Sequence record: PZ379178.1
Origin: a phage
Length of the DNA stretch: 46,856 nt
Reading direction: 5' to 3' (one strand)
Both the position numbers and the translations under genes were made by a program. Below the pieces are notes generated by a model that worked only from the letters and a program-made list of their open reading frames with translations, was not told the DNA's origin and did not search any database. This document shows positions 2,717-38,538 of this stretch, piece by piece. Position 1 is the stretch's first letter. The number at the start of each line of letters is the position of its first letter.

Positions 2717-3136
2717 ATGAAAATCACAGACAAAGGTGATTACCTCGAGTTCTATGGCGGACCGGTGAAGTCATGCCCAAAGGAAGACGATGAACAAATC
2801 TTCTGCTCTGATTGGGTGAAATACAACTATCCGCAGATTGTTTACTGGCACACGATTAACGAAAATAAAAAGAGCATTGGTCAAGCAAGAAAAGACCAAG
2901 CCAAGGGGCTTCTCAAAGGTGTGTCAGACTGCTTATTTCTGATACCTGAGTCATTGCGTGGCGGTTATCCATTTGGCGCCATAGAGTTAAAGAGGGCTGG
3001 TAAAACGCAAGCAAGCCCAGTTAGCAATGAGCAAAAGTCATTCCTAAAAAGCGTAAGTGAATCAGGCGGTTTCGCAGCGGTGGCTTATGGAAGAGAGGGT
3101 TTTCTTGCGGCATTCGCAGAGATGATAAGAAAATAG
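2717..3136 (+). CDS. VRR-NUC-like PD-(D/E)XK nuclease
   Basis: 139 aa; GVSDCLFLIP ... FGAIELKRAGKTQ matches D...E-x-K nuclease core of VRR-NUC proteins; immediately follows helicase. Confidence 0.55.
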   Translation: MKITDKGDYLEFYGGPVKSCPKEDDEQIFCSDWVKYNYPQIVYWHTINENKKSIGQARKDQAKGLLKGVSDCLFLIPESLRGGYPFGAIELKRAGKTQASPVSNEQKSFLKSVSESGGFAAVAYGREGFLAAFAEMIRK

Positions 3137-3185
3137 CACGAATTGCTAAAGACGAATTGGTGAGTTGGTGTATTATCAACTCATC
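3134..3185 (+). promoter_or_regulatory. Box-hairpin-leader cassette (candidate phage promoter)
   Basis: Box TAGCACGAATTGCTAAA 3134-3150, hairpin GAGTTG/CAACTC, TATTAT 3171-3176, leader CATCGAAACG from 3182; ATG 3215. Confidence 0.5.
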
Positions 3186-3214: not shown

Positions 3215-3409
3215 ATGGCTACTATCTATACTGGTAAATTCTACGAATCACGCAAGACTGGCTACATCTACGAGATGCAAGTAACTGAAGATGGTTATGT
3301 TTTGGTTGACATTGAAGACTGCACATATGCATTCGAAGTTAGCCCAACTTACAAATATGATCTGGAAACTGTTAAAAACGAATTCGGCGAAAAATTTGAT
3401 GAGGTATAA
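3215..3409 (+). CDS. Hypothetical small protein
   Basis: 64-aa ORF 81 nt downstream of promoter box 3134; AGAGAGAAAG purine run before ATG. Confidence 0.5.
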   Translation: MATIYTGKFYESRKTGYIYEMQVTEDGYVLVDIEDCTYAFEVSPTYKYDLETVKNEFGEKFDEV

Positions 3410-4002: not shown

Positions 4003-4254
4003 ATGTTTGGATTAGATTTCCAGCCAAAGCATTATGATTTAGTGCATGGTAGTAGCGGAGCCAGGTTTAGAGCGATACCTATTGATGACTGGTTTCCACC
4101 TGACTATGTGGATGTTAACGCGAAGACGAAGGACGGTAAATGGGTACAGATTTACTACTCTCCAGCGTGCGGTAATCTGTGCATGACAGACATGGACCAA
4201 AAATTAGCAATTAGTGCTGATTTGTTGGATTTCTGGTTAAAAGAGGTTGAATGA
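4003..4254 (+). CDS. Hypothetical protein
   Basis: 83-aa ORF, 2 nt after previous stop. Confidence 0.5.
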   Translation: MFGLDFQPKHYDLVHGSSGARFRAIPIDDWFPPDYVDVNAKTKDGKWVQIYYSPACGNLCMTDMDQKLAISADLLDFWLKEVE

Positions 4255-4335
4255 GGTACGTAGCCCTAGTAGCATTAGCACCACTGGTTAGCTTTACTAT
4301 CTTATATTTTATCGTGATGAACTAAGGACTTAAAA

Positions 4336-5472
4336 ATGGCAGCAGCAAAGATTACCAACGAGCAATTAATCGAAGAACTGAAAAACGGCCTTACTAACAA
4401 GGCGATTGCAGAGAAGTATGGTATGAACATTCGTAACGTTGAGATTCGTCGCAGTAAGTTGGCTAAGAGTGGCTTGTTCGGGCATGGTAACGAAGGCATT
4501 AAGAAGCTAGTACCGGACGGATACTTGGTAAAAGGCACTTCGACCATGATTGATGCGGATGGGAATGAGAAGCTGCGTTGGGTTAAGACTTCAATTGATA
4601 ATGAGCGCCTTGAGATTCTGCTTGAGCAAGCACGAGAGGCATTTTGTTCTGACTTACCAAAGGCAGTTGCCAGTGAGTGCCCAGACATTGATTTTGATGA
4701 TGACACGATGGCTATGTATCCGGTTTTCGACCTTCACATTGGCGCAATGGCTCATAAGCATGAGTGCGGTGAAAACTACGACACTGCAACAGCAGAGAAG
4801 GTAATGAATAGCTTCTTTGATTATGCTGTAGATAAGGCTCCTAAATCAATAAATGCGACATTAGTTTTGGGGGGTGATTTTCTGCATTACGACTCTCTAG
4901 AGGCTAAAACACCAGCATCAGGACATATCTTAGACAGCGACAGTCGCTATGCTAAATTGGTTTACGTAGCAATCCGCTCAGTGCGTCGTGCGGTTTCAAG
5001 GATGCTTGAGAAGCACCAAATCATTGATATTAAAGTAATAAGTGGAAATCACGACGAAGCTGGGATGGTTTGGTTGCGTGCAGCATTGGCGGCATTCTAT
5101 GAAGACGAGGAGCGAATTACTGTCGACGTAAGCCCAGCAGCAATGCTGATGACAAGCTTCGGCTCAACATTGATTGGTTATACTCATGGTCACCAGATGC
5201 GAAAAGCTGAAACTCGACTTACAGTAATGGCTACAGACTTTCGTAAACTATTCGGTAACAGCGAATATGTCTATACACACTCGGGCCACTGGCATAGTCA
5301 GAAAATTACAGAAACAAACCTGGGTATCGATGAAGTTCATGGTCAGCTTGGCGCGCCAGATGCCTATTCAGCTAATGGAGGATGGCGCTCAATGCGTCAA
5401 GCAGCGGTAATCGTTTACCATAAGCGTTTTGGTGAGGTTGGTCGATTTATTTGTCGCCCTGAGATGTTCTAA
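4336..5472 (+). CDS. Calcineurin-like metallophosphoesterase with N-terminal HTH-like region
   Basis: Motifs DLHIG, GGDFLHYD, GNHDE, GHQM, GHWH in order typical of metallophosphoesterases; N-terminal LTNKAIAEKYGMNIRNVEIRR resembles a helix-turn-helix. Confidence 0.6.
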   Translation: MAAAKITNEQLIEELKNGLTNKAIAEKYGMNIRNVEIRRSKLAKSGLFGHGNEGIKKLVPDGYLVKGTSTMIDADGNEKLRWVKTSIDNERLEILLEQAREAFCSDLPKAVASECPDIDFDDDTMAMYPVFDLHIGAMAHKHECGENYDTATAEKVMNSFFDYAVDKAPKSINATLVLGGDFLHYDSLEAKTPASGHILDSDSRYAKLVYVAIRSVRRAVSRMLEKHQIIDIKVISGNHDEAGMVWLRAALAAFYEDEERITVDVSPAAMLMTSFGSTLIGYTHGHQMRKAETRLTVMATDFRKLFGNSEYVYTHSGHWHSQKITETNLGIDEVHGQLGAPDAYSANGGWRSMRQAAVIVYHKRFGEVGRFICRPEMF

Positions 5473-6634: not shown

Positions 6635-6808
6635 ATGACTAAATTATACTGCGTTAAAAACAACTCAAAGACACTGCCGTTCACCGAAAACCAGCCGTAC
6701 AGCGCAGAGTCTCTAGGTGACGGTTACTACAAAGTTTACGGTGACGATATGACTCACATCCTTGCGCCGATTGATGGCTCTTTGGTGGAATTTATTATCG
6801 CAGATTAA
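6635..6808 (+). CDS. Hypothetical small protein (57 aa)
   Basis: ATG 74 nt downstream of promoter box 6561 with AGAGGA SD; followed by terminator hairpin. Confidence 0.35.
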   Translation: MTKLYCVKNNSKTLPFTENQPYSAESLGDGYYKVYGDDMTHILAPIDGSLVEFIIAD

Positions 6809-10184: not shown

Positions 10185-10570
10185 TTGTATTGAGCCTCAA
10201 AGTGGTAAGTTTCACACAACGTATAAAAGCCAACATCTTCGCTGCGATATAGCTGCCAGGCGTTGCCATCTTCATCGTAAATGTATCCAGCTGACTGACC
10301 AAGTCCGCTATGCATGTTGACCTGGTATCGCTTACCTTCTTTGAAGTCTTTCTTAACGCCAGACTTATGGTTAACCTTTGTGCAGTAAAGAGTTTTGGTT
10401 TTAATGTATTTTCCACGTTCTTCCAGGTTGATCCATTTGCCGTCTTTTTTGATTTGCTCAAATTCAACTTCCTCAGCGACACCGTTAACCCACTGGTGAA
10501 TCTTTTTAACGCGAGCTTTAAATAGCTTGTTGTCGTTGCTAATGAAATTTTTGGTTATCGTAGTAGTCAT
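10181..10570 (-). CDS. Hypothetical protein
   Basis: 129-aa ORF, Lys-rich. Confidence 0.5.
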   Translation of the reverse strand: MTTTITKNFISNDNKLFKARVKKIHQWVNGVAEEVEFEQIKKDGKWINLEERGKYIKTKTLYCTKVNHKSGVKKDFKEGKRYQVNMHSGLGQSAGYIYDEDGNAWQLYRSEDVGFYTLCETYHFEAQYK

Positions 10571-10731
10571 TATTTTAATCTCTTAGTTGTCCACATGAAT
10601 TTGTTTGGTACTGATTTGCGCACAATACGCACAACAATCTTATCAAACTTCTGAACTAAACCGTAAATCTTACCATCTAGCGACGCCCTGAGAACCGCCT
10701 CTTCCATCTCGTCATAAAAGTTGTCGAACAT
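10570..10731 (-). CDS. Hypothetical small protein (53 aa)
   Basis: ORF track extends through promoter box via TTG; ATG at 10731 lies after leader CATCGAAACGAAAGAGAG and is preferred. Confidence 0.4.
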   Translation of the reverse strand: MFDNFYDEMEEAVLRASLDGKIYGLVQKFDKIVVRIVRKSVPNKFMWTTKRLK

Positions 10732-10806
10732 GATCTCTTGCTCTCTTTCGTTTCGATGGAGTAAATATACGCCATCCGTGGCGGTGAGTTTTAGCAATTA
10801 GTGCTA
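10732..10806 (-). promoter_or_regulatory. Box-hairpin-leader cassette (minus orientation)
   Basis: Reverse-complement box TAGCACTAATTGCTAAA (10790-10806), hairpin CGCCACGGATGGCG, leader CATCGAAACGAAAGAGAG; precedes ATG 10731. Confidence 0.5.
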
Positions 10807-10955
10807 TTTTTTCTGGCCTTCTCAATTGCCTTCAACATAATCTCGTGAGACTCAAGCAGGTCCTCGTTAAACCAGTCCCCGCAAGGCCAACCCTTTCCGC
10901 TGTAAGCACTAATTATTTCCAGATCGAAATAGTTTATCTCAGATGGTAAAAGCAT
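10791..10955 (-). CDS. Hypothetical small protein (54 aa)
   Basis: Start overlaps upstream stop (TAATG); ends KNSTNC* inside promoter box 10790-10806. Confidence 0.3.
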   Translation of the reverse strand: MLLPSEINYFDLEIISAYSGKGWPCGDWFNEDLLESHEIMLKAIEKARKNSTNC

Positions 10956-14910: not shown

Positions 14911-15072
14911 ATGATTAAGATCGTATATATTGGTGAGGATGATTATATGGCGCGCTTAAAGCATGGCGACGTATTCTATGCAGAGCCTAGCGAAGATGGC
15001 AATGGGTACTTCATTAAAAACAAGCACGATGAGGAGCTTTACATAGCAAACCACGAGGCTCTTGTTTACTAA
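14911..15072 (+). CDS. Hypothetical small protein (53 aa)
   Basis: ATG with GTGAGGTGA SD; below ORF-track cutoff. Confidence 0.35.
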   Translation: MIKIVYIGEDDYMARLKHGDVFYAEPSEDGNGYFIKNKHDEELYIANHEALVY

Positions 15073-15505: not shown

Positions 15506-15689
15506 TAACGACAATAATCACAAACATCATTACATTTACGTGTTCACATCAATCATTAACGATTTTGACATTAAGGCGATAAGCTCTGCATACCACGAGT
15601 CAACAAAACCAAGTGTATCAATAGGTGAAACATGTGCGTTCTACGAGTGCAAAGATTGTGGCAAGATGCTTATAACTGAGGAGTTTTGA
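15498..15689 (+). CDS. Hypothetical small protein with CxxC pair
   Basis: ATG 15498 overlapping upstream end; C-terminal CAFYECKDCGKM. Confidence 0.4.
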   Translation: MSDNDNNHKHHYIYVFTSIINDFDIKAISSAYHESTKPSVSIGETCAFYECKDCGKMLITEEF

Positions 15690-15886
15690 TGAATAAAATT
15701 ATTAAGAAAGGCGATGCTATCAAGTGCACAAAGGCGGCATCGGATGACTTCATGGATGGATGCGATTACCAGGTCGAAAAGGTATCGAAGACTGGCCACG
15801 TATTCTGCTACAGCGATAATGGCGAATTGGTGAGCATTGACTACCCGTATGACCAGAATTATGGGAAATTCGAAAGAGTAAGTTGA
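15686..15886 (+). CDS. Hypothetical small protein
   Basis: 66-aa ORF with ATGA overlap. Confidence 0.45.
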   Translation: MMNKIIKKGDAIKCTKAASDDFMDGCDYQVEKVSKTGHVFCYSDNGELVSIDYPYDQNYGKFERVS

Positions 15887-16687: not shown

Positions 16688-17212
16688 ATGAAAGACGAAA
16701 ACTTCACCAGTCAGGCGCAAGAAAAGGTCCGCTCTGGCAACTTTAAAGCCATGTACAATAAAAAGTACTCAGACATTACAACGCTAGCCAAAAACCGAAG
16801 CATGACACCCGAACAGCTATTTGAATTCGCCGTGAAATACTTCTCATGGGCTGAGGACCAGGCAATCAAGGCAATCGAGACAGCCAGCTTCCAGGGTGTG
16901 GTAAAAGAGAGCCTGGTGCACAAACCACGAGTCTTCACGCTAACCGGATTCTGCCTTTACTGCGGTGTCACCCATAGCGCCATCGAGAAATGGAGGAAGT
17001 CGGCTGGTTATGATGAGGTGATTGCGTTCATTGATTCCGTGATTCGCGAGCAGAAATACCAGCTTGCAGCATCTGGCATTGTTAACCCTGGCATGATTTC
17101 CAAGGAGCTTGGAATCGACAAACCGCAGGAGATCACTATAAGCAATAACTCTTCTGCTAACGACGTCGAAACGATGAAGGAAGCTCTGGAGTCTGTGATT
17201 AGTAAGCTGTAA
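16688..17212 (+). CDS. Terminase small subunit (putative)
   Basis: 174 aa directly upstream of terminase large subunit, first gene of late block after terminator; AAAGGAGG SD. Confidence 0.5.
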   Translation: MKDENFTSQAQEKVRSGNFKAMYNKKYSDITTLAKNRSMTPEQLFEFAVKYFSWAEDQAIKAIETASFQGVVKESLVHKPRVFTLTGFCLYCGVTHSAIEKWRKSAGYDEVIAFIDSVIREQKYQLAASGIVNPGMISKELGIDKPQEITISNNSSANDVETMKEALESVISKL

Positions 17213-17281
17213 TAACATGGGGTAGATTGGCGTGATCAAATTAATGAAGGCGTTATTGGTGTATTACATGATGGCAGCTAC

Positions 17282-18901
17282 ATGCTTCACAACTGGATTC
17301 TTAATTGGCGTGATGGTTGGATTGGTGAAATTATGGCTAATTTAGTTTGGGAGGAAATGACGCCAGCAGAAAAGATGGCGGTTAAGGCGATATCCACTCA
17401 TAGCTTCGAGGGTTTCTTACGAGTGTGGTTCCAGCTTACCCAGGGAGAGCGATACATACCTAACTGGCACCATAGATACCTTTGCAGAATTATCGATGAG
17501 ATTATTGCTGGTGAGCGTAAGGACACAATCATTAACATCGCTCCTGGCAGTGGGAAGACAGAGATTGCCTCAATTCACTTCCCAGCCTACTCAATGGTTA
17601 AGTTGAGAAAGGTAAGGAACCTGAATATATCGTATGCTGACTCACTGGTTAAGCGTAACTCCAAGCGTGTGCGCGACTTAATTAAGTCTGTTGAGTTCCA
17701 GGAGTTGTTCCCATGTAAGTTTGGTACGTGTAAGGATGATGAGCTACAGGTCCTGGATGACTATGGCAAGGTCAGGTTTGAGTCAATCTCTAAAGCCACT
17801 GGCGGCCAAATTACAGGCGCGAGGGGTGGATATATAACCGATTCGTATAGTGGTGCGGTACTGTTAGATGATTTTGACAAACCAGCCGACATGCTTTCTG
17901 CTGTTTTTCGCGCTAACAATCACGTGATGCTAAAGAATACAATACGCTCTCGTAGGGCGAGCTCCGTAAAAGGAAAGGCGACGCCGATTATCTCTATCCA
18001 ACAGCGCCTTCATGTGAACGATAGTACGTGGTTCATGATGAATGGCGGTATGGGTATTAGCTTCGACTTGATTAAAATACCGGCGCTCGTAACTGAGGAT
18101 TACGTCGACACGCTTCCTGACTGGATTAAGCAGCAATTCATTGATGACGTTCTATCAAGCGAATATATTGAGCGTGATGGTGTTAGGTACTATAGCTATT
18201 TCCCTGGCAAGGAATCTGTTCACGACCTAGTTGCAATGTGGGATTCTGATAGCTATACATTCCTTAGCCAGTATCAGCAAGAACCAGTAGCACTTGGCGG
18301 CAACCTGATTAACGTAGACTGGCTTCAACGCATTAGCGACACTCTGCGACCGCCAGCTAAGTACGATTACAGGTTTATGGTCCTTGATACTGCGATGACA
18401 ACCAAAAGTTACAGCGACTTTAGCGTCATGCAGCTATGGGGTTATAAGGATGGGAAGATTTATCTGCTTGACCAGCGGCGCGGTAAATTTGAAGCTCCTG
18501 AGCTCGAGGCTGAGTTATTGGATTTCGAGAAGATGGCTAGGGCATCCAATCAGATAGATGGCATCCTTCGTAAAATCATCATCGAGAAGAAAGCCTCTGG
18601 TATTGGCCTGATTCAATCAGCCGGAAGGGTTATGCGAACGCCTATCGAGCCGTACGTTCCGGATAACGATAAGCTGACTCGCGTAATGAGTGCATTGCCG
18701 CAGATTAAAGCTGGTAACGTAATCCTTCCGGAGTCTGCTACTTGGCTTAATGGCTTGCTAACGGAGATTGCGGCATTCACGGCAGATGATTCACATGTTC
18801 ACGATGACCAGATAGACTGTTTGACAATGGCTGTCAACCTGGTACTGAACATTGCAGAAGACCCTAAATCGAGGATGATGCGCCTCGCTGGCATCAAATA
18901 G
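17282..18901 (+). CDS. Terminase large subunit
   Basis: 539 aa; Walker A NIAPGSGKTE near N-terminus, acidic nuclease-type C-terminal half; position before portal; alternative start ATG 17336. Confidence 0.8.
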   Translation: MLHNWILNWRDGWIGEIMANLVWEEMTPAEKMAVKAISTHSFEGFLRVWFQLTQGERYIPNWHHRYLCRIIDEIIAGERKDTIINIAPGSGKTEIASIHFPAYSMVKLRKVRNLNISYADSLVKRNSKRVRDLIKSVEFQELFPCKFGTCKDDELQVLDDYGKVRFESISKATGGQITGARGGYITDSYSGAVLLDDFDKPADMLSAVFRANNHVMLKNTIRSRRASSVKGKATPIISIQQRLHVNDSTWFMMNGGMGISFDLIKIPALVTEDYVDTLPDWIKQQFIDDVLSSEYIERDGVRYYSYFPGKESVHDLVAMWDSDSYTFLSQYQQEPVALGGNLINVDWLQRISDTLRPPAKYDYRFMVLDTAMTTKSYSDFSVMQLWGYKDGKIYLLDQRRGKFEAPELEAELLDFEKMARASNQIDGILRKIIIEKKASGIGLIQSAGRVMRTPIEPYVPDNDKLTRVMSALPQIKAGNVILPESATWLNGLLTEIAAFTADDSHVHDDQIDCLTMAVNLVLNIAEDPKSRMMRLAGIK

Positions 18902-18970
18902 CACGTTTTGCTAAAGACGCGCCGCCAAGGATGGCTTATAGTTACTTCACGCAAACGAGAGGAGTAAAAA
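18899..18970 (+). promoter_or_regulatory. Box-hairpin-leader cassette
   Basis: Box TAGCACGTTTTGCTAAA 18899-18915, hairpin GCCA/TGGC, TTATAG, leader CACGCAAACGAGAGGAG; drives moron 18971. Confidence 0.5.
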
Positions 18971-19324
18971 ATGAAAGCAGTATTTAAAGGGTATAAAAAA
19001 GCTGGTTATTTTGATTTTACCGTTGGTAAGATTTATGACTTATCAAGAACGCCTGGAAGTAATAATGAATACGTCAAAGTTAAGGATGATAAAGGCTATT
19101 TGGGCGTAATTAATCTTAGTGTTTATGATTTCGAAGTTATAGAGCCTACCGATTTTGTCGTTAAAGGTGATAATTTTAAAGTTGAAAAGGCTGGGATTAA
19201 ATACTTCATCAACAAAGACATAGTAACTAAAGAGGCATTTTATGAAGTCAGAAGGGAGGTTCGCCAGTTAACACTTAATGGAGTGAAAACATCATCAATC
19301 AAGTTCGAAGTAAAATTCGAGTAA
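18971..19324 (+). CDS. Hypothetical Lys-rich protein (moron-like insert between terminase and portal)
   Basis: 117-aa ORF with own promoter box (18899) and own terminator (19347-19368); AT-rich codon usage. Confidence 0.5.
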   Translation: MKAVFKGYKKAGYFDFTVGKIYDLSRTPGSNNEYVKVKDDKGYLGVINLSVYDFEVIEPTDFVVKGDNFKVEKAGIKYFINKDIVTKEAFYEVRREVRQLTLNGVKTSSIKFEVKFE

Positions 19325-19346
19325 CCATAAAAGCTATGCTAAACTA

Positions 19347-19368
19347 AGCCCCTAAATGGGGCTTTTTA
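19347..19368 (+). terminator. Rho-independent terminator
   Basis: AGCCCC-TAAAT-GGGGCT followed by T5. Confidence 0.6.
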
Positions 19369-19382
19369 TTGGAGCAAATAAA

Positions 19383-20660
19383 ATGGTAAAAGCAGATTCA
19401 TACGCCACGCAATTTCTTGGTGGCCCCAGTGATGGTAGCGAGATTTACGGGCACTTTGGCAACACGTATCTTACACCTCCTTTCGCTGATTCACTGTACG
19501 CATCAAACTCAATTGTACGCCGCATCGTCGACACCATACCGGAGACAGCAATCGCCGCAGGTTTCCATATCGATGGTATTGATGACGAAGGTGAATTCTG
19601 GTCCAGGTGGGATTACCTGAAGGTTAACGAGTCAATCTCTGACGCATGGTCATGGGCGAGGTTATTTGGCGGCTCTGCAATTGTGGCTATCGTTAAGGAC
19701 AATCGTGCGCTAACTAGCCCGGTACGTGAAGGCGCGGAACTTGAATCACTTCGCGTTTATGAGCGTAGCCAGGTAAGAGTTCAGACTAAGGAGGAAAACC
19801 CTCGCAATGTGCGATTCGGTAAGCCATTAACGTACCGCATCACGCCAGAAGGTGGCGCCATGTTTTATGATGTGCACTACTCGCGAGTTCACATTATGGA
19901 TGGCGAGAAGATTCCTAGTTCATTGCGTCGCGGTAATGACGGGTGGGGTGCTAGCGTTCTGGTTCCTGACCTGCTTGAATCAATCAAGGATTATCAGACG
20001 TGTGAGAAACTGGCAACTCAGTTATTGCGCCGCAAGCAGCAGGCGGTGTGGAAGGCTAAAGGCCTTGCTGAACTGTGTGACGACGCGGAAGGTTTTGGTG
20101 CGGCCAGGTTGAGGCTTGCTCAGGTTGATGATAACTCTGGCGTTGGTCGCGCGATTGGTATCGACGCTGAAGCTGAAGAGTACAGCGTTCTTAACTCGGA
20201 TATTGGTGGGATTGATGGATTCCTCGATAAGAAGTTCGACAGAATTGTTGCTCTGAGCGGTATCCATGAAATCATTCTCAAAGGTCGTAACGTTGGCGGG
20301 TTATCATCTAGCCAAAACACAGCGCTAGAGACATTCCATAAGTTGATTGACCGCAAGCGTAACGAAGAGCTACTTCCAGTTCTTGGGTTCTTAATCCCGT
20401 TCATCACAACCGAGCAAGAATGGTCAGTTGAGTTTAACCCTCTAGCTCAGGAATCGAAGAAAGACCGCGCTGAAATACTGAAGAATAACGTTGATTCAAT
20501 TACTGCTCTTATCACTAACGGCGTGATGGATGCAGACGAAGCACGAGATACCTTGCGCGCATTAGCCCCTGAGGTTAAGATTGGTGAAGGTTCAATTGAG
20601 ACAGAGGTAACAATCAATGAAACCAGTGAAGACCCGCTGGAAGTACCCGCAGACAATTGA
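19383..20660 (+). CDS. Portal protein (putative)
   Basis: About 426 aa, immediately downstream of terminase region and upstream of head-morphogenesis gene; start 19383 chosen because 19356 overlaps terminator. Confidence 0.7.
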   Translation: MVKADSYATQFLGGPSDGSEIYGHFGNTYLTPPFADSLYASNSIVRRIVDTIPETAIAAGFHIDGIDDEGEFWSRWDYLKVNESISDAWSWARLFGGSAIVAIVKDNRALTSPVREGAELESLRVYERSQVRVQTKEENPRNVRFGKPLTYRITPEGGAMFYDVHYSRVHIMDGEKIPSSLRRGNDGWGASVLVPDLLESIKDYQTCEKLATQLLRRKQQAVWKAKGLAELCDDAEGFGAARLRLAQVDDNSGVGRAIGIDAEAEEYSVLNSDIGGIDGFLDKKFDRIVALSGIHEIILKGRNVGGLSSSQNTALETFHKLIDRKRNEELLPVLGFLIPFITTEQEWSVEFNPLAQESKKDRAEILKNNVDSITALITNGVMDADEARDTLRALAPEVKIGEGSIETEVTINETSEDPLEVPADN

Positions 20661-21345
20661 GAATCAGGTAAACCGCAACCTTAGCGTTGCGGTAACTGAG
20701 CTAATATCTGCAATGAAAGAATCAGCTACGCGGCTTAAGATTGACACTGCCGAGGAGCTAGAGCAGGAAGATAATTATCTCGACGCAATCATAGCAGCGC
20801 TTATAGCTTCTGTTGTAGCTACACTTCCGGCAATTGGAGCGTCAATATACAGGTATAATTCATCGCAGTTTCTTGTGCTGGCAATCAAGACTGGTGGCGG
20901 CTCGGTTCAGTCAGTTATGGACTTGAGACTTAACGGTATAAATGGAGATGAAGATTGGTATCAGCCGGATTTAAACCAGTGGCTTTACACATCAAATAAG
21001 TCCGTTGAAAAGTTACTCAACAATATCAAGGACGACTTTATTCAGTCTGCATCAATCATACAGAGTGGTGACTACCTTAAGATTAACGAAAGGTACAAGA
21101 TTTACCGCAAGAGAACTGCTAATATAGCCTCAGGCATCACGTCCAGTATTAACTCTACGTTCATGCGCAGGAGGCTAGAGGATGCTGGTGTTACCCATTA
21201 CATTTGGCACGGCATGCTTGATGAAAGGGAGCGAATGACCCATTTCAAGAAAGAGGGCCTAAGCTTCAGGTTGAGCGGTAACGATCTCTTCCCTGGTCAG
21301 GAATACGGCTGTCGTTGTTGGGCTGTGCCGGATTGGGAGTCATAA
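20617..21345 (+). CDS. Head morphogenesis / minor capsid protein (putative)
   Basis: 242 aa overlapping portal 3-prime end; C-terminal YIWHGMLDERERMTHF resembles conserved core of phage head-morphogenesis proteins. Confidence 0.5.
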   Translation: MKPVKTRWKYPQTIENQVNRNLSVAVTELISAMKESATRLKIDTAEELEQEDNYLDAIIAALIASVVATLPAIGASIYRYNSSQFLVLAIKTGGGSVQSVMDLRLNGINGDEDWYQPDLNQWLYTSNKSVEKLLNNIKDDFIQSASIIQSGDYLKINERYKIYRKRTANIASGITSSINSTFMRRRLEDAGVTHYIWHGMLDERERMTHFKKEGLSFRLSGNDLFPGQEYGCRCWAVPDWES

Positions 21346-27290: not shown

Positions 27291-27297
27291 AAATTAA

Positions 27298-27317
27298 CCC
27301 TCTTCGGAGGGTTTTTT
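27298..27317 (+). terminator. Rho-independent terminator after major tail gene
   Basis: CCCTC-TTCG-GAGGG followed by T6. Confidence 0.65.
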
Positions 27318-27322
27318 ATTGA

Positions 27323-27398
27323 TAGCACTTTTTGTTAAAGGCTAAGTCGCGGATTGCTGTATAGTTCATTCATCGAAAAGAAATGAGAGATTAATGAA
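27323..27398 (+). promoter_or_regulatory. Box-hairpin-leader cassette, variant box
   Basis: Box TAGCACTTTTTGTTAAA 27323-27339, TATAGT, leader CATCGAAAAGAAATGAGAG from 27371; drives moron 27399. Confidence 0.5.
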
Positions 27399-27647
27399 AT
27401 GAACAACGTTAAAAATATCATCAAACTTGCTGCTGCTCTTGGTGCTTTCTACCTGGCAATTCAGATTGTCAACCCAACTGGTGGCGCAACCGCTAACTCT
27501 GATGCAATAAAGTATGAACATGAATTTAATAGTGCATATTCTCATTGTGAAAAAGTAGCTGGCGATAAGACAAATCAGATTCTGCATTATGGTCGCGAGG
27601 TGTGCACCGAAGTTGCTCACAACATTGTAAAAAACGAATCAAAGTAA
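27399..27647 (+). CDS. Small protein with N-terminal signal/TM segment (moron-like)
   Basis: 82 aa; N-terminal IIKLAAALGAFYLAIQIV; own promoter box 27323; sits between major tail and chaperone genes. Confidence 0.45.
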   Translation: MNNVKNIIKLAAALGAFYLAIQIVNPTGGATANSDAIKYEHEFNSAYSHCEKVAGDKTNQILHYGREVCTEVAHNIVKNESK

Positions 27648-37330: not shown

Positions 37331-38302
37331 TTAGTAGAAGTTTGGTATGAATGGTAGAGCCATTGATATGTTTGTGTCGAATGGGAATTGGGCTCCCGTC
37401 TGCGTTGAGTAGTTCCCTATCACAGTGCCTGGAACTGCCCTTACGGCACCACCAGACATGCATATTCCCTTGTACCTTAAGTTGTTATACCCTCCAGTAA
37501 CTCTTGTTGTAGCGCCGCACCTGAGCAGTGGGAAGAACCCTCCATTTATTGACTGGAAACCATTGGTTATTTGTATAAAGCCACCAAGCACGAACGGTCG
37601 CCTGACGCTTGAAAAAACAATCTGTCCAGAACTATTAGACATTGTGAGTCCTGGGCCAGCTACTGGAGGGTCATTCCTGAATATCACTAACTGTACGTAA
37701 GTACTTGCTGCAACGTCATCTATGCCGCTGTAGTTTATGTTGCGGCACCAAATTGTATTACCGTCGCTCTCCAGAGAAACGTTTGGGTTATCCCATTTAC
37801 CAAATGGAATCCCACTGACTGGTAGTGAGGCGGCGCCGTTAACCTGTATTCCACCAACCCATGCCGCAGACATTAACCGCGAATTGCTTGAAATTGCCAA
37901 AAAGTCAGTTGAGTTCTCAACCAGTATTCCTGGGCTTGATGAAGACGAGGCTGGGAGTATTTCAAAGCAATTTCCAGCAAAGTCAATTATACGACCTCTT
38001 GCGCCATTGAAGTCACTAAGCGTTATCCTGCCAGTTCCGTCATTTACCTTCTGGAACCCGTTCATATAATAAACTTCAGGTACAACATCATAAGCGTCAA
38101 CGTGCACAGCCTTTGTTGGAAGGCAGAATGCTGTTGAGCCTGTGGACATGGTTAAACCAAAATCCCATGATGATGCTGGCGTCGAAAGTCCATTGGTATT
38201 TATTGAGCCAGTCACAGCGGGCGCTCTTAATCCTGCCGTTATTTCCATAGGTGGCCTTCCGTCGTTGAGGTCTATCAATATACCCTGTGGCATTATTTCC
38301 AC
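37331..38302 (-). CDS. Hypothetical Gly/Ser/Asn-rich protein, cotranscribed with lipoprotein gene
   Basis: 323-aa ORF overlapping 3-prime end of 38293..38538 by 10 nt; convergent with J-like gene at bidirectional terminator. Confidence 0.5.
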
Positions 38303-38538
38303 TCCTTAGACCCGTGATCTGCAACTGAACCGCCATAACCTCCACCAGCCTTGCTCTCAATACCAGCGTAGCGCACATCAACTTCACCAGCCGGTACAAT
38401 CACACCATCTTTCCATTTAGCCACGCACACGCCGTTTGCTTGCGTTGCACACCAACCGTCTGGTCGCGGACTAGAAGAGCAACCTACCATCATGATTGCT
38501 GCTGCGGCGATGATTGAAAGTTTGATTAAGTTAGTCAT
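38293..38538 (-). CDS. Small lipoprotein, Cor/Llp-like superinfection-exclusion candidate
   Basis: 81 aa; signal peptide with lipobox MVGC, short mature domain; own promoter box (38606-38622); located next to tail fiber locus. Confidence 0.4.

Follow-up and report, generated by a model that had tools for sequence, protein, structure and literature searches.

An apparently dispensable, shuffled accessory gene between the terminase and portal genes of a T1/Rtp-like coliphage

In the phage sequence PZ379178.1, a stretch of 46,856 nucleotides (nt) analyzed here in full and called the window, an open reading frame (ORF) of 117 amino acids (aa) separates the gene for the large terminase (TerL) from the portal gene. 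As these two genes are normally adjacent, the locus raises the question of what the ORF is, how it came to lie there, and what its product might do. An earlier note on the window had proposed a self-contained moron at 18899-19368, that is, an extra gene with its own promoter and terminator. This interval does begin precisely at the first base of a repeated sequence box and finish at the end of a T-run, and the 117-aa ORF within it is confirmed. Comparison with related phages leads us to read the ORF as a dispensable, shuffled accessory gene in a recombination-prone slot, with a product that is probably a cytoplasmic protein-binding factor, and we give this reading a probability of about 0.6. 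Its two parts do not stand equally firm: the shuffled accessory cassette is very likely, while the intracellular effector has slightly less than an even chance.

By sequence, the window phage belongs to the family Drexlerviridae, subfamily Braunvirinae, as a T1/Rtp-like coliphage. Its TerL-portal region is 96% identical to those of Escherichia phages ES (OR466728) and AN_ECEAS (PP944860), both Braunvirinae, and ~75 to 82% identical to those of Rtp-like phages, with T1 as a distant relative. We surveyed the slot between TerL and portal at 68 sampled loci in which both anchors could be placed. There is no ORF at 48 of these, with gaps of 49 nt in Rao1 and 54 nt in T1; 16 carry a member of the same family as the 117-aa ORF, PHROG 14592; and 4 (L019, L029, L050, and L068) carry an HNH-AP2 homing endonuclease gene. 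The gene is thus absent from most relatives rather than conserved in all of them with a known structural role. All three slot states occur among phages whose portal N termini have equal identity to that of the window (~75%). Because TerL and portal adjoin in close and distant relatives alike, the 117-aa ORF can be described as a dispensable and compositionally deviant insert. Its G+C content (GC) of 0.328 (range across, 0.33 to 0.35) compares with 0.441 for the window and 0.45 to 0.50 for the flanks, bearing out its description as AT-rich, and is the minimum among the 17 box-led genes of the window.

The alleles that fill the slot appear decoupled from the backbone in a mosaic pattern. Over the flanking 600 nt, L010 and IMM-001 are 87 to 89% identical to the window, while their ORFs have only 61% nt and 42% aa identity (L010) or 57% nt and 35% aa identity (IMM-001). 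Rtp, with flanks at 70 to 76%, has an ORF with 57% nt identity. Rao1 matches the flanks at 87% of nucleotides, the last 150 TerL residues at 96%, and the first 120 portal residues at 94%, and has no ORF at all. In the allele comparison, the leader is conserved at 76 to 84% and the trailer at 76 to 93%. The indel that distinguishes the window from Rao1 (18901-19336) has end points 0 nt from the box on the left and 11 nt from the terminator on the right, and the block that is present or absent is made up of box, leader, and ORF (~436 nt). Empty slots come in more than one form, including eight Rtp-like junctions of 48 to 49 nt without a box (Rao1; L016, L020, L023-L025, L027, and L028) and ~20 TLS-like junctions that have a box, TATAAT, and terminator with nothing between. 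The HNH-AP2 genes of L019 and L029 are preceded by the same box as the 117-aa ORF.

The terminator that had been assigned to the ORF turns out to belong to the junction. A GC-rich hairpin and T-run lie directly 5' of the portal ribosome-binding site (RBS) at 68 of 68 junctions, empty slots included; in the window, this element begins 21 nt after the end of the ORF. The hairpins were judged one by one, as their stem sequences differ widely between relatives (GCCCC/GGGGC, GGCTGG/CCAGCC, GGGCTGTC/GACGGCCC, and GGGCCA/TGGCCC). The same hairpin, T-run, and RBS (GCGTGATAAACTAGCCTCTTAAATGGGGCTTTTTTATTGGAG...) make up the gap in Rao1, and that in T1 holds an annotated terminator and the same TTTTTATTGGAG string. 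The portal RBS reads TTTTTATTGGAG in the window clade, with TTTTTTATTATGGAG-type variants in distant relatives. This distribution indicates a terminator ancestral to the TerL/portal junction and older there than the 117-aa gene. The position homologous to 19340-19345 reads TATAAT, TACAAT, or TAAAAT in the junctions compared, which suggests that hexamer and hairpin form a composite terminator/promoter of the portal operon, in which TAAACT of the window may be the -10 element of a portal promoter overlapping the terminator. A canonical extended -10 was considered here and dropped, as the TG adjoins the hexamer instead of lying one base away. The junction element at 19337-19374, with homologues in L002, L005, and L016-L071, could end packaging transcripts and start those of the portal operon inside the stem.

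The left side of the cassette is formed by a box that recurs throughout the window (TAGCACnnnTTGCTAAA). There are 20 copies with at most two mismatches, at sites that include 3134, 6561, 10806 (minus strand), 13169, 13852, 18899, 27323, 41039, and 44803; with at most three mismatches there are 23 matches against 6 expected, a number reached in 0 of 100 shuffled sequences. The copies stand in a module of constant order: box, a short variable inverted repeat (in most copies), a TATAAT-like hexamer, a leader of the ...CATCGAAACGA type, a Shine-Dalgarno (SD) sequence, and ATG. From box start to start codon the distance is 68 to 102 nt, mostly 71 to 84 nt, and 72 nt at the 117-aa ORF, where a leader of ~25 nt follows TATAGT. 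In four measured modules (6561, 10806, 13852, and 18899), TAGCAC and the TATAAT-like hexamer are ~31 to 32 nt apart; at the TerL-portal box of TLS-like phages, only 17 nt separate it from a TATAAT or TACAAT that abuts the terminator. Most modules of the window have an inverted repeat at a similar position with a sequence that differs from copy to copy, and the one ahead of the 117-aa ORF is kept in homologous leaders, for example, as GCCATTGGTGGC in IMM-001.

A direct repeat, aaATAGCACnnnTTGnTAAAA, has been published for phage TLS, with 21 copies ~76 nt 5' of start codons, and is present in T1, Rtp, and Rogue1 as well; its role as a stoperator, enhancer site, or UP-like element was left open (PMC11447400). 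The window box has the same sequence and a similar copy number (20 against 21 in TLS). The TLS re-annotation ties the repeat neither to turnover of gene cassettes nor to the family of the 117-aa ORF (PMC11447400). From its recurrence and placement we take the box to be real, generic, and promoter associated by position, with promoter activity that is putative. What stands of the promoter proposed for the ORF is therefore a box at 72 nt with TATAGT between box and start codon; the box is not proprietary to the ORF, being found at TLS-like junctions that lack it. TTGCTA was tried as the -35 element and rejected because its spacer to TATAGT is 23 nt. We found no usable transcriptomes of T1-like phages in the literature.

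Only 2 of the 17 box-led ORFs are in the late region, the 117-aa ORF and an 82-aa membrane-type ORF at 27399-27647. The second unit (window 27296-27647) has a terminator after the major tail protein gene, the box at 27323, and the 82-aa ORF, which has a hydrophobic N-terminal segment; it lies just 5' of the tail assembly chaperone genes. ES and Rao1 (gp25) have annotated 249-nt ORFs at the equivalent position, a likeness in length and place alone. Elsewhere in the window, a box-led 81-aa ORF on the minus strand (38293-38538) has a lipoprotein signal (...MMVGC SSS) and is probably a receptor-blocking lipoprotein of the Cor/Rtp45 type.

Members of the family also occupy other slots, where the same sequence motifs mark the ends of the insert. 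Divergent copies are found between gpM and gpL (P0034 and P0033), and one is found between gpL and gpK (P0039) in AugustePiccard (L014, MZ501051), a phage that has two paralogues (at ~17915-18232 and 2803-3165 of its record), the other being in the TerL-portal slot. In P0034 and P0039, the tail-slot copies for which DNA was retrieved, the insert opens with ATAGCAC, immediately behind the stop codon of the gene before it, shares the leader, and stops just 5' of an AAACTA-hairpin-TTTTTTATTGGAG element. The empty gpM-gpL junctions of the window and of AugustePiccard are exactly this element, and the end points of the gpM-gpL insertion likewise fall in box and terminator motifs. Outside the Drexlerviridae, a homologue (P0040) lies among small hypothetical genes beside DNA ligase in the Vequintavirinae phage UPEC06, in an early-type gene block. 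The features of the TerL-portal interval in the window are collected in Table 1.

Table 1. Coordinates of the TerL-portal interval in the window
Feature	Position	Strand	Remark
Large terminase gene TerL (upstream neighbor)	17282..18901	+	PHROG 38, E 7e-107; Pfam Terminase_6C
Direct-repeat box copy TAGCACGTTTTGCTAAA	18899..18915	+	Drexlerviridae repeat; promoter associated by position, putative upstream element
Short inverted repeat GCCA-AGGA-TGGC, spacer between box and -10-like hexamer	18924..18935	+	folds as hairpin
-10-like hexamer TATAGT	18937..18942	+	read from sequence
Shine-Dalgarno sequence GAGAGGAG of the 117-aa ORF	18957..18964	+	conserved in homologous leaders
Accessory gene, 117 aa, ATG start	18971..19324	+	PHROG 14592 member
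TATAAT-like hexamer TAAACT abutting the hairpin	19340..19345	+	from comparison of 68 junctions
Terminator-like hairpin AAGCCCC-TAAAT-GGGGCTT and T-run	19346..19370	+	7-bp stem at 19346-19364
Portal Shine-Dalgarno sequence GGAG, part of the conserved TTTTTATTGGAG string	19371..19374	+	
Portal gene (downstream neighbor)	19383..20660	+	Pfam Phage_portal_3, E 3e-67; PHROG 146, E 2e-126

The protein family is small and widely diverged. The 117-aa ORF matches the hidden Markov model (HMM) of PHROG 14592 with an E value of 9.3e-29, residues 1 to 117 aligning to positions 2 to 116 of a 116-position profile, and all 31 aligned relatives match it too. Homologues were found by tblastn in 38 of 50,697 phage records. 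Among 5.8 billion proteins, a word-indexed search gave 18 family clusters, and a profile search of 1.84 billion representative proteins gave ~26 clusters of 100 to 140 aa. Contigs with a known context are of Drexlerviridae size (~45 to 50 kb) or fragments of such genomes. No second copy of the family was found in the window. In the alignment, the N terminus MKAVFKGY and the C terminus SSIKFEVKFE are very conserved and flank a variable middle with in-frame indels. The ratio of nonsynonymous to synonymous substitution rates (dN/dS) is 0.27 to 0.48 for unsaturated pairs. Because the PHROG match is full length, the frame is kept through indels, and dN/dS is below 1, we consider the ORF a real gene under moderate purifying selection. 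The product of 13.5 kDa has 17 Lys residues and an isoelectric point (pI) of 9.1, so that it is Lys rich, as had been observed from the sequence. Among the other 30 members, however, 28 have a pI of 4.4 to 5.6 and two have a pI of 6.4 to 6.8. Lys richness and basic charge are thus peculiar to the allele of the window and of ES, whose ORFs are 100% identical, a reversal of charge within a small family.

To the eye the protein had no recognizable motif, and searches agree: there is no Pfam, NCBIfam, or PADLOC hit; no nuclease or DNA-binding motif (HNH, GIY-YIG, or LAGLIDADG); and no signal peptide or transmembrane segment in the sequence. Sequence searches of the PDB, with the single sequence and with a profile, gave chance-level hits only. 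AlphaFold2 was run twice, with 19 and with 31 sequences, and both predictions have the same two-domain structure. The N-terminal domain (residues 1 to 57) is predicted as a five-stranded, SH3-like beta domain with a predicted local distance difference test score (pLDDT) of ~85 to 94, and the C-terminal domain (76 to 116) is predicted as a ββαβ unit with a pLDDT of ~90 to 97; the predicted disordered linker between them (~60 to 71) coincides with the family indels. The orientation of the domains is not defined, as the predicted template modeling score is only 0.46 to 0.48. The predicted structure has no fold match among solved or predicted virion proteins (PDB and BFVD).

The N-terminal domain may have relatives among small phage proteins. 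Five family members match Pfam DUF7244 weakly, below the curated threshold, and a box-led 57-aa ORF of the window (6635-6808) is a clear DUF7244 member (E 5e-28), although its match to the N-terminal domain of the 117-aa protein is weak (HMM E 0.007; hhalign probability, 20%). Compared with stand-alone SH3-like phage proteins (DUF7244; Bas11 Gp54, PDB 9axb), the 117-aa family adds the linker and the ββαβ domain, and no sequence similarity between the 117-aa protein and 9axb is detectable. Three further small ORFs of the window (3215-3409, 14911-15072, and 15686-15886) have the pattern G..Y...GY..V.DD.G, which weakly resembles the N-terminal domain. A relationship of Bas11 Gp54 to the small SH3-like ORFs of the window was considered and set aside, there being no sequence hit. 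The C-terminal ββα unit was likewise considered as an HNH-type nuclease finger and rejected, as it has no conserved His or metal ligands; the conserved residues in this region are only N81, V85, and F90.

How might such a gene move? In T4-type phages, the PeSL motif extends from the upstream stop codon through a promoter and a stem-loop (often placed between -35 and -10) to the downstream SD sequence and start codon (Arbiol et al. 2010, PMC2839356; Comeau et al. 2014, PMC4122927). PeSLs precede ORFans, a few copies lie in virion modules beside genes annotated without function, and the ends of indels and replacements fall in the motifs (PMC2839356, PMC4122927). The 20 modules of the window are alike in being a repeated intergenic composite with stop codon, stem-loop, SD sequence, and ATG, in preceding ORFans, in lying inside the virion module in some cases, and in having indel ends at the motifs in the TerL-portal slot. 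They differ in phage family and sequence, in having a conserved 17-nt upstream box and a weak -35, and in that a conserved, separate terminator/RBS element instead of a second promoter motif forms the right-hand joint at TerL-portal. The likeness of Drexlerviridae modules to PeSLs, which are characterized by promoter and terminator activity and by mini-circles, is one of sequence layout. From this PeSL-like architecture we therefore infer that box modules and look-alike terminators would serve as homologous joints, exchanged in coinfection by homologous recombination, a mechanism described for the PeSL cassettes of T4-type phages. The gene would be transcribed from a box-associated promoter, by read-through from TerL, or both, with transcription stopping at the junction terminator. 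Its product would be soluble and cytoplasmic, with two domains, an SH3-like beta-barrel (possibly DUF7244 related) and, tethered to it, a ββαβ domain. Most likely it acts in the infected cell by binding a protein of host, defense, or phage origin and does not help to build the virion. Rapid allele turnover would fit the target or effector of an arms race.

The comparison with morons is equally two-sided. Morons of lambdoid phages were reportedly described by Juhala, Hendrix, and colleagues in comparing HK97 and HK022. As in that case, the window has an extra, dispensable, AT-rich gene between genes that adjoin in relatives, with a promoter-like element 5' and a terminator 3'. In contrast, the terminator (and, in distant relatives, the box too) was already at the junction and did not arrive with the gene, and different alleles as well as homing endonuclease genes make use of the slot. 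The window phage, which we take to be virulent as its relatives are described, would have no prophage-state expression or lysogen benefit, so that the classical rationale of a moron expressed from the prophage is not directly transferable. The proposal of a self-contained moron thus holds in that the gene is extra, dispensable, and deviant in composition and is flanked on either side by signals, but not in its self-containment, as those signals are family-wide punctuation. In layout the gene is moron-like, and its sequence context points to a PeSL-like shuffled accessory gene.

A broader version can be put forward only tentatively, and we regard it as unlikely in its entirety: boxes and AAACTA-hairpin-TTTTTTATTGGAG terminators would make up a PeSL-like exchange system that moves ORFans (the SH3-like family and HNH genes) between slots of the virion operon, and PHROG 14592 would be a fast-diversifying intracellular effector, either an anti-defense factor or a defense trigger, mislabeled as a virion protein.

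Several points weigh against reading the 117-aa ORF as a shuffled gene for a cytoplasmic protein-binding factor. A sigma-70 consensus scan finds no promoter in its leader, and the hexamer at the proper -35 distance from TATAGT, AAGACG, is a poor -35 with 3 of 6 matches. Breakpoints that lie at most 40 nt away from a box or terminator are more numerous than under a uniform null, both against Rao1 (6 of 31 observed, 1.9 expected; P ~0.005) and against ES (5 of 18 observed, 1.1 expected; P ~0.005), but this enrichment is weak support for cassette joints because the null ignores that both kinds of site are intergenic. The host-interaction or anti-defense role suggested in the earlier note finds no backing in PADLOC, Pfam, or NCBIfam, and the predicted function is the least certain part of our reading. 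Every Drexlerviridae copy is inside the late structural operon and codirectional with it, which would also fit a late virion or assembly accessory protein. Finally, PHROG 14592 bears the label "virion structural protein," as do RefSeq and Pharokka records that go back to it, and one GenBank record reads "putative minor outer capsid protein."

The alternative to which the last two points lead is a minor virion or assembly accessory protein, that is, a late product that serves as a nonessential decoration of head, neck, or tail or as an aid to packaging. Many decoration proteins are dispensable and variable, and late read-through into the ORF is possible because there is no terminator between TerL and the ORF. 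The label itself appears to be a propagated one. In the seven RefSeq/GenBank pairs listed, it stands solely in the RefSeq copy, the original submission having a hypothetical protein, and we assume that other labeled records, which are recent submissions, were annotated by PHROG-based pipelines. Neither the names of the cluster members nor the proteome and genome literature on T1-like and related phages yielded an experiment behind it, and "virion structural protein" is thus most likely a propagated family label. We also found no report, in the papers searched, of a family protein in purified virions or a virion structure, and virion proteomics of related phages lists other proteins. The 13.5-kDa band seen in virions of AHP24-type phages is ORF12/13, which lies 3' of the capsid gene, with the portal being ORF04 (PMC4070988). 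TerL and portal adjoin in AAS23. Mass spectrometry of Rogue1 covered three bands only, and bands in the MSK study were matched in silico only.

The distribution of the family also bears on this alternative. Members in head-module and tail-module slots and in the early-type block of a myovirus (UPEC06) are hard to reconcile with one fixed site in the particle. Alleles differ at 58 to 65% of amino acids on nearly identical TerL/portal backbones, net charge shifts from acidic to basic, and the gene is absent from most Drexlerviridae, including those with near-identical backbones. Together with the missing structural likeness to virion proteins, this patchiness, spread over several slots, early-type context in UPEC06, turnover, and change of charge argue against a fixed structural role, and we consider a virion protein unlikely.

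Somewhat less probable still is a selfish or neutral passenger, an ORFan carried in a cassette that recombines efficiently or biases its own inheritance and that has no adaptive function for the phage. HNH homing endonuclease genes have slots in common with the 117-aa family (TerL-portal, around gpM, and TerS-TerL) and the same presence/absence polymorphism, here with precise boundaries; the family is tiny and patchy, and selection is relaxed compared with core genes, with dN/dS up to 0.48 to 0.62. The 117-aa protein nevertheless differs from the free-standing HNH enzymes in having neither a nuclease motif, including GIY-YIG and LAGLIDADG signatures, nor a catalytic His or Asn, and it has no Pfam match. 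Moreover, dN/dS is below 1 throughout; in 31 diverged members, frames are intact and both terminal segments, along with about a dozen residues, show strong conservation; and the retention of two paralogues in one genome suggests use. A chance ORF in a long regulatory spacer, to which its shortness, AT richness, and lack of a curated domain match might point, is already effectively refuted by the comparative data, given the full-length PHROG match, homologues that keep frame and length at 27 to 35% identity, purifying dN/dS, a strong SD sequence, and a confident AlphaFold2 fold.

The neighborhood of the slot has features of its own. The true start of TerL is probably the ATG at 17333 and not the listed 17282, as judged from relatives, whose TerL proteins have 520 to 522 aa and to which the megablast match begins near 17345. 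Its stop codon TAG (18899-18901) lies inside the box. At TerS-TerL (17212-17344), the window has no HNH homing endonuclease gene, unlike ES, AN_ECEAS, Rtp, phiEB49, and Rao1. A Mu-F-like head morphogenesis gene lies 3' of portal (20617-21345), as it does in Rtp (rtp24). ES, although 96% identical otherwise, lacks it, as does Rao1, in which a protease/scaffold gene directly follows portal. Rao1 (L074) has HNH genes in three slots of the structural operon and a reverse-strand Rha-like gene at gpL-gpK (4108-4614, 10279-10875, 18857-19399, and 20820-21308 for these mobile or accessory genes). By their gene content, the intergenic slots of the structural operon appear to be general landing sites for mobile and accessory genes.

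Morons and PeSL-type shuffling are established ideas, and the 117-aa gene changes no current concept. What it does bear on is annotation and practice. The label of PHROG 14592, which is spreading in RefSeq and through Pharokka, apparently lacks an experimental basis and is probably mistaken. T1-like phages are candidates for phage therapy as well as major contaminants in laboratories and industry. Knowing which genes of the structural operon are swappable, and where its joints lie, shows where cargo fits safely and which genes are candidates for effects on host range or anti-defense. With a slot that is empty, filled by divergent alleles, or taken by an HNH gene, the TerL-portal locus amounts to a small experiment of nature on what the 21-nt direct repeat does in T1-like phages.

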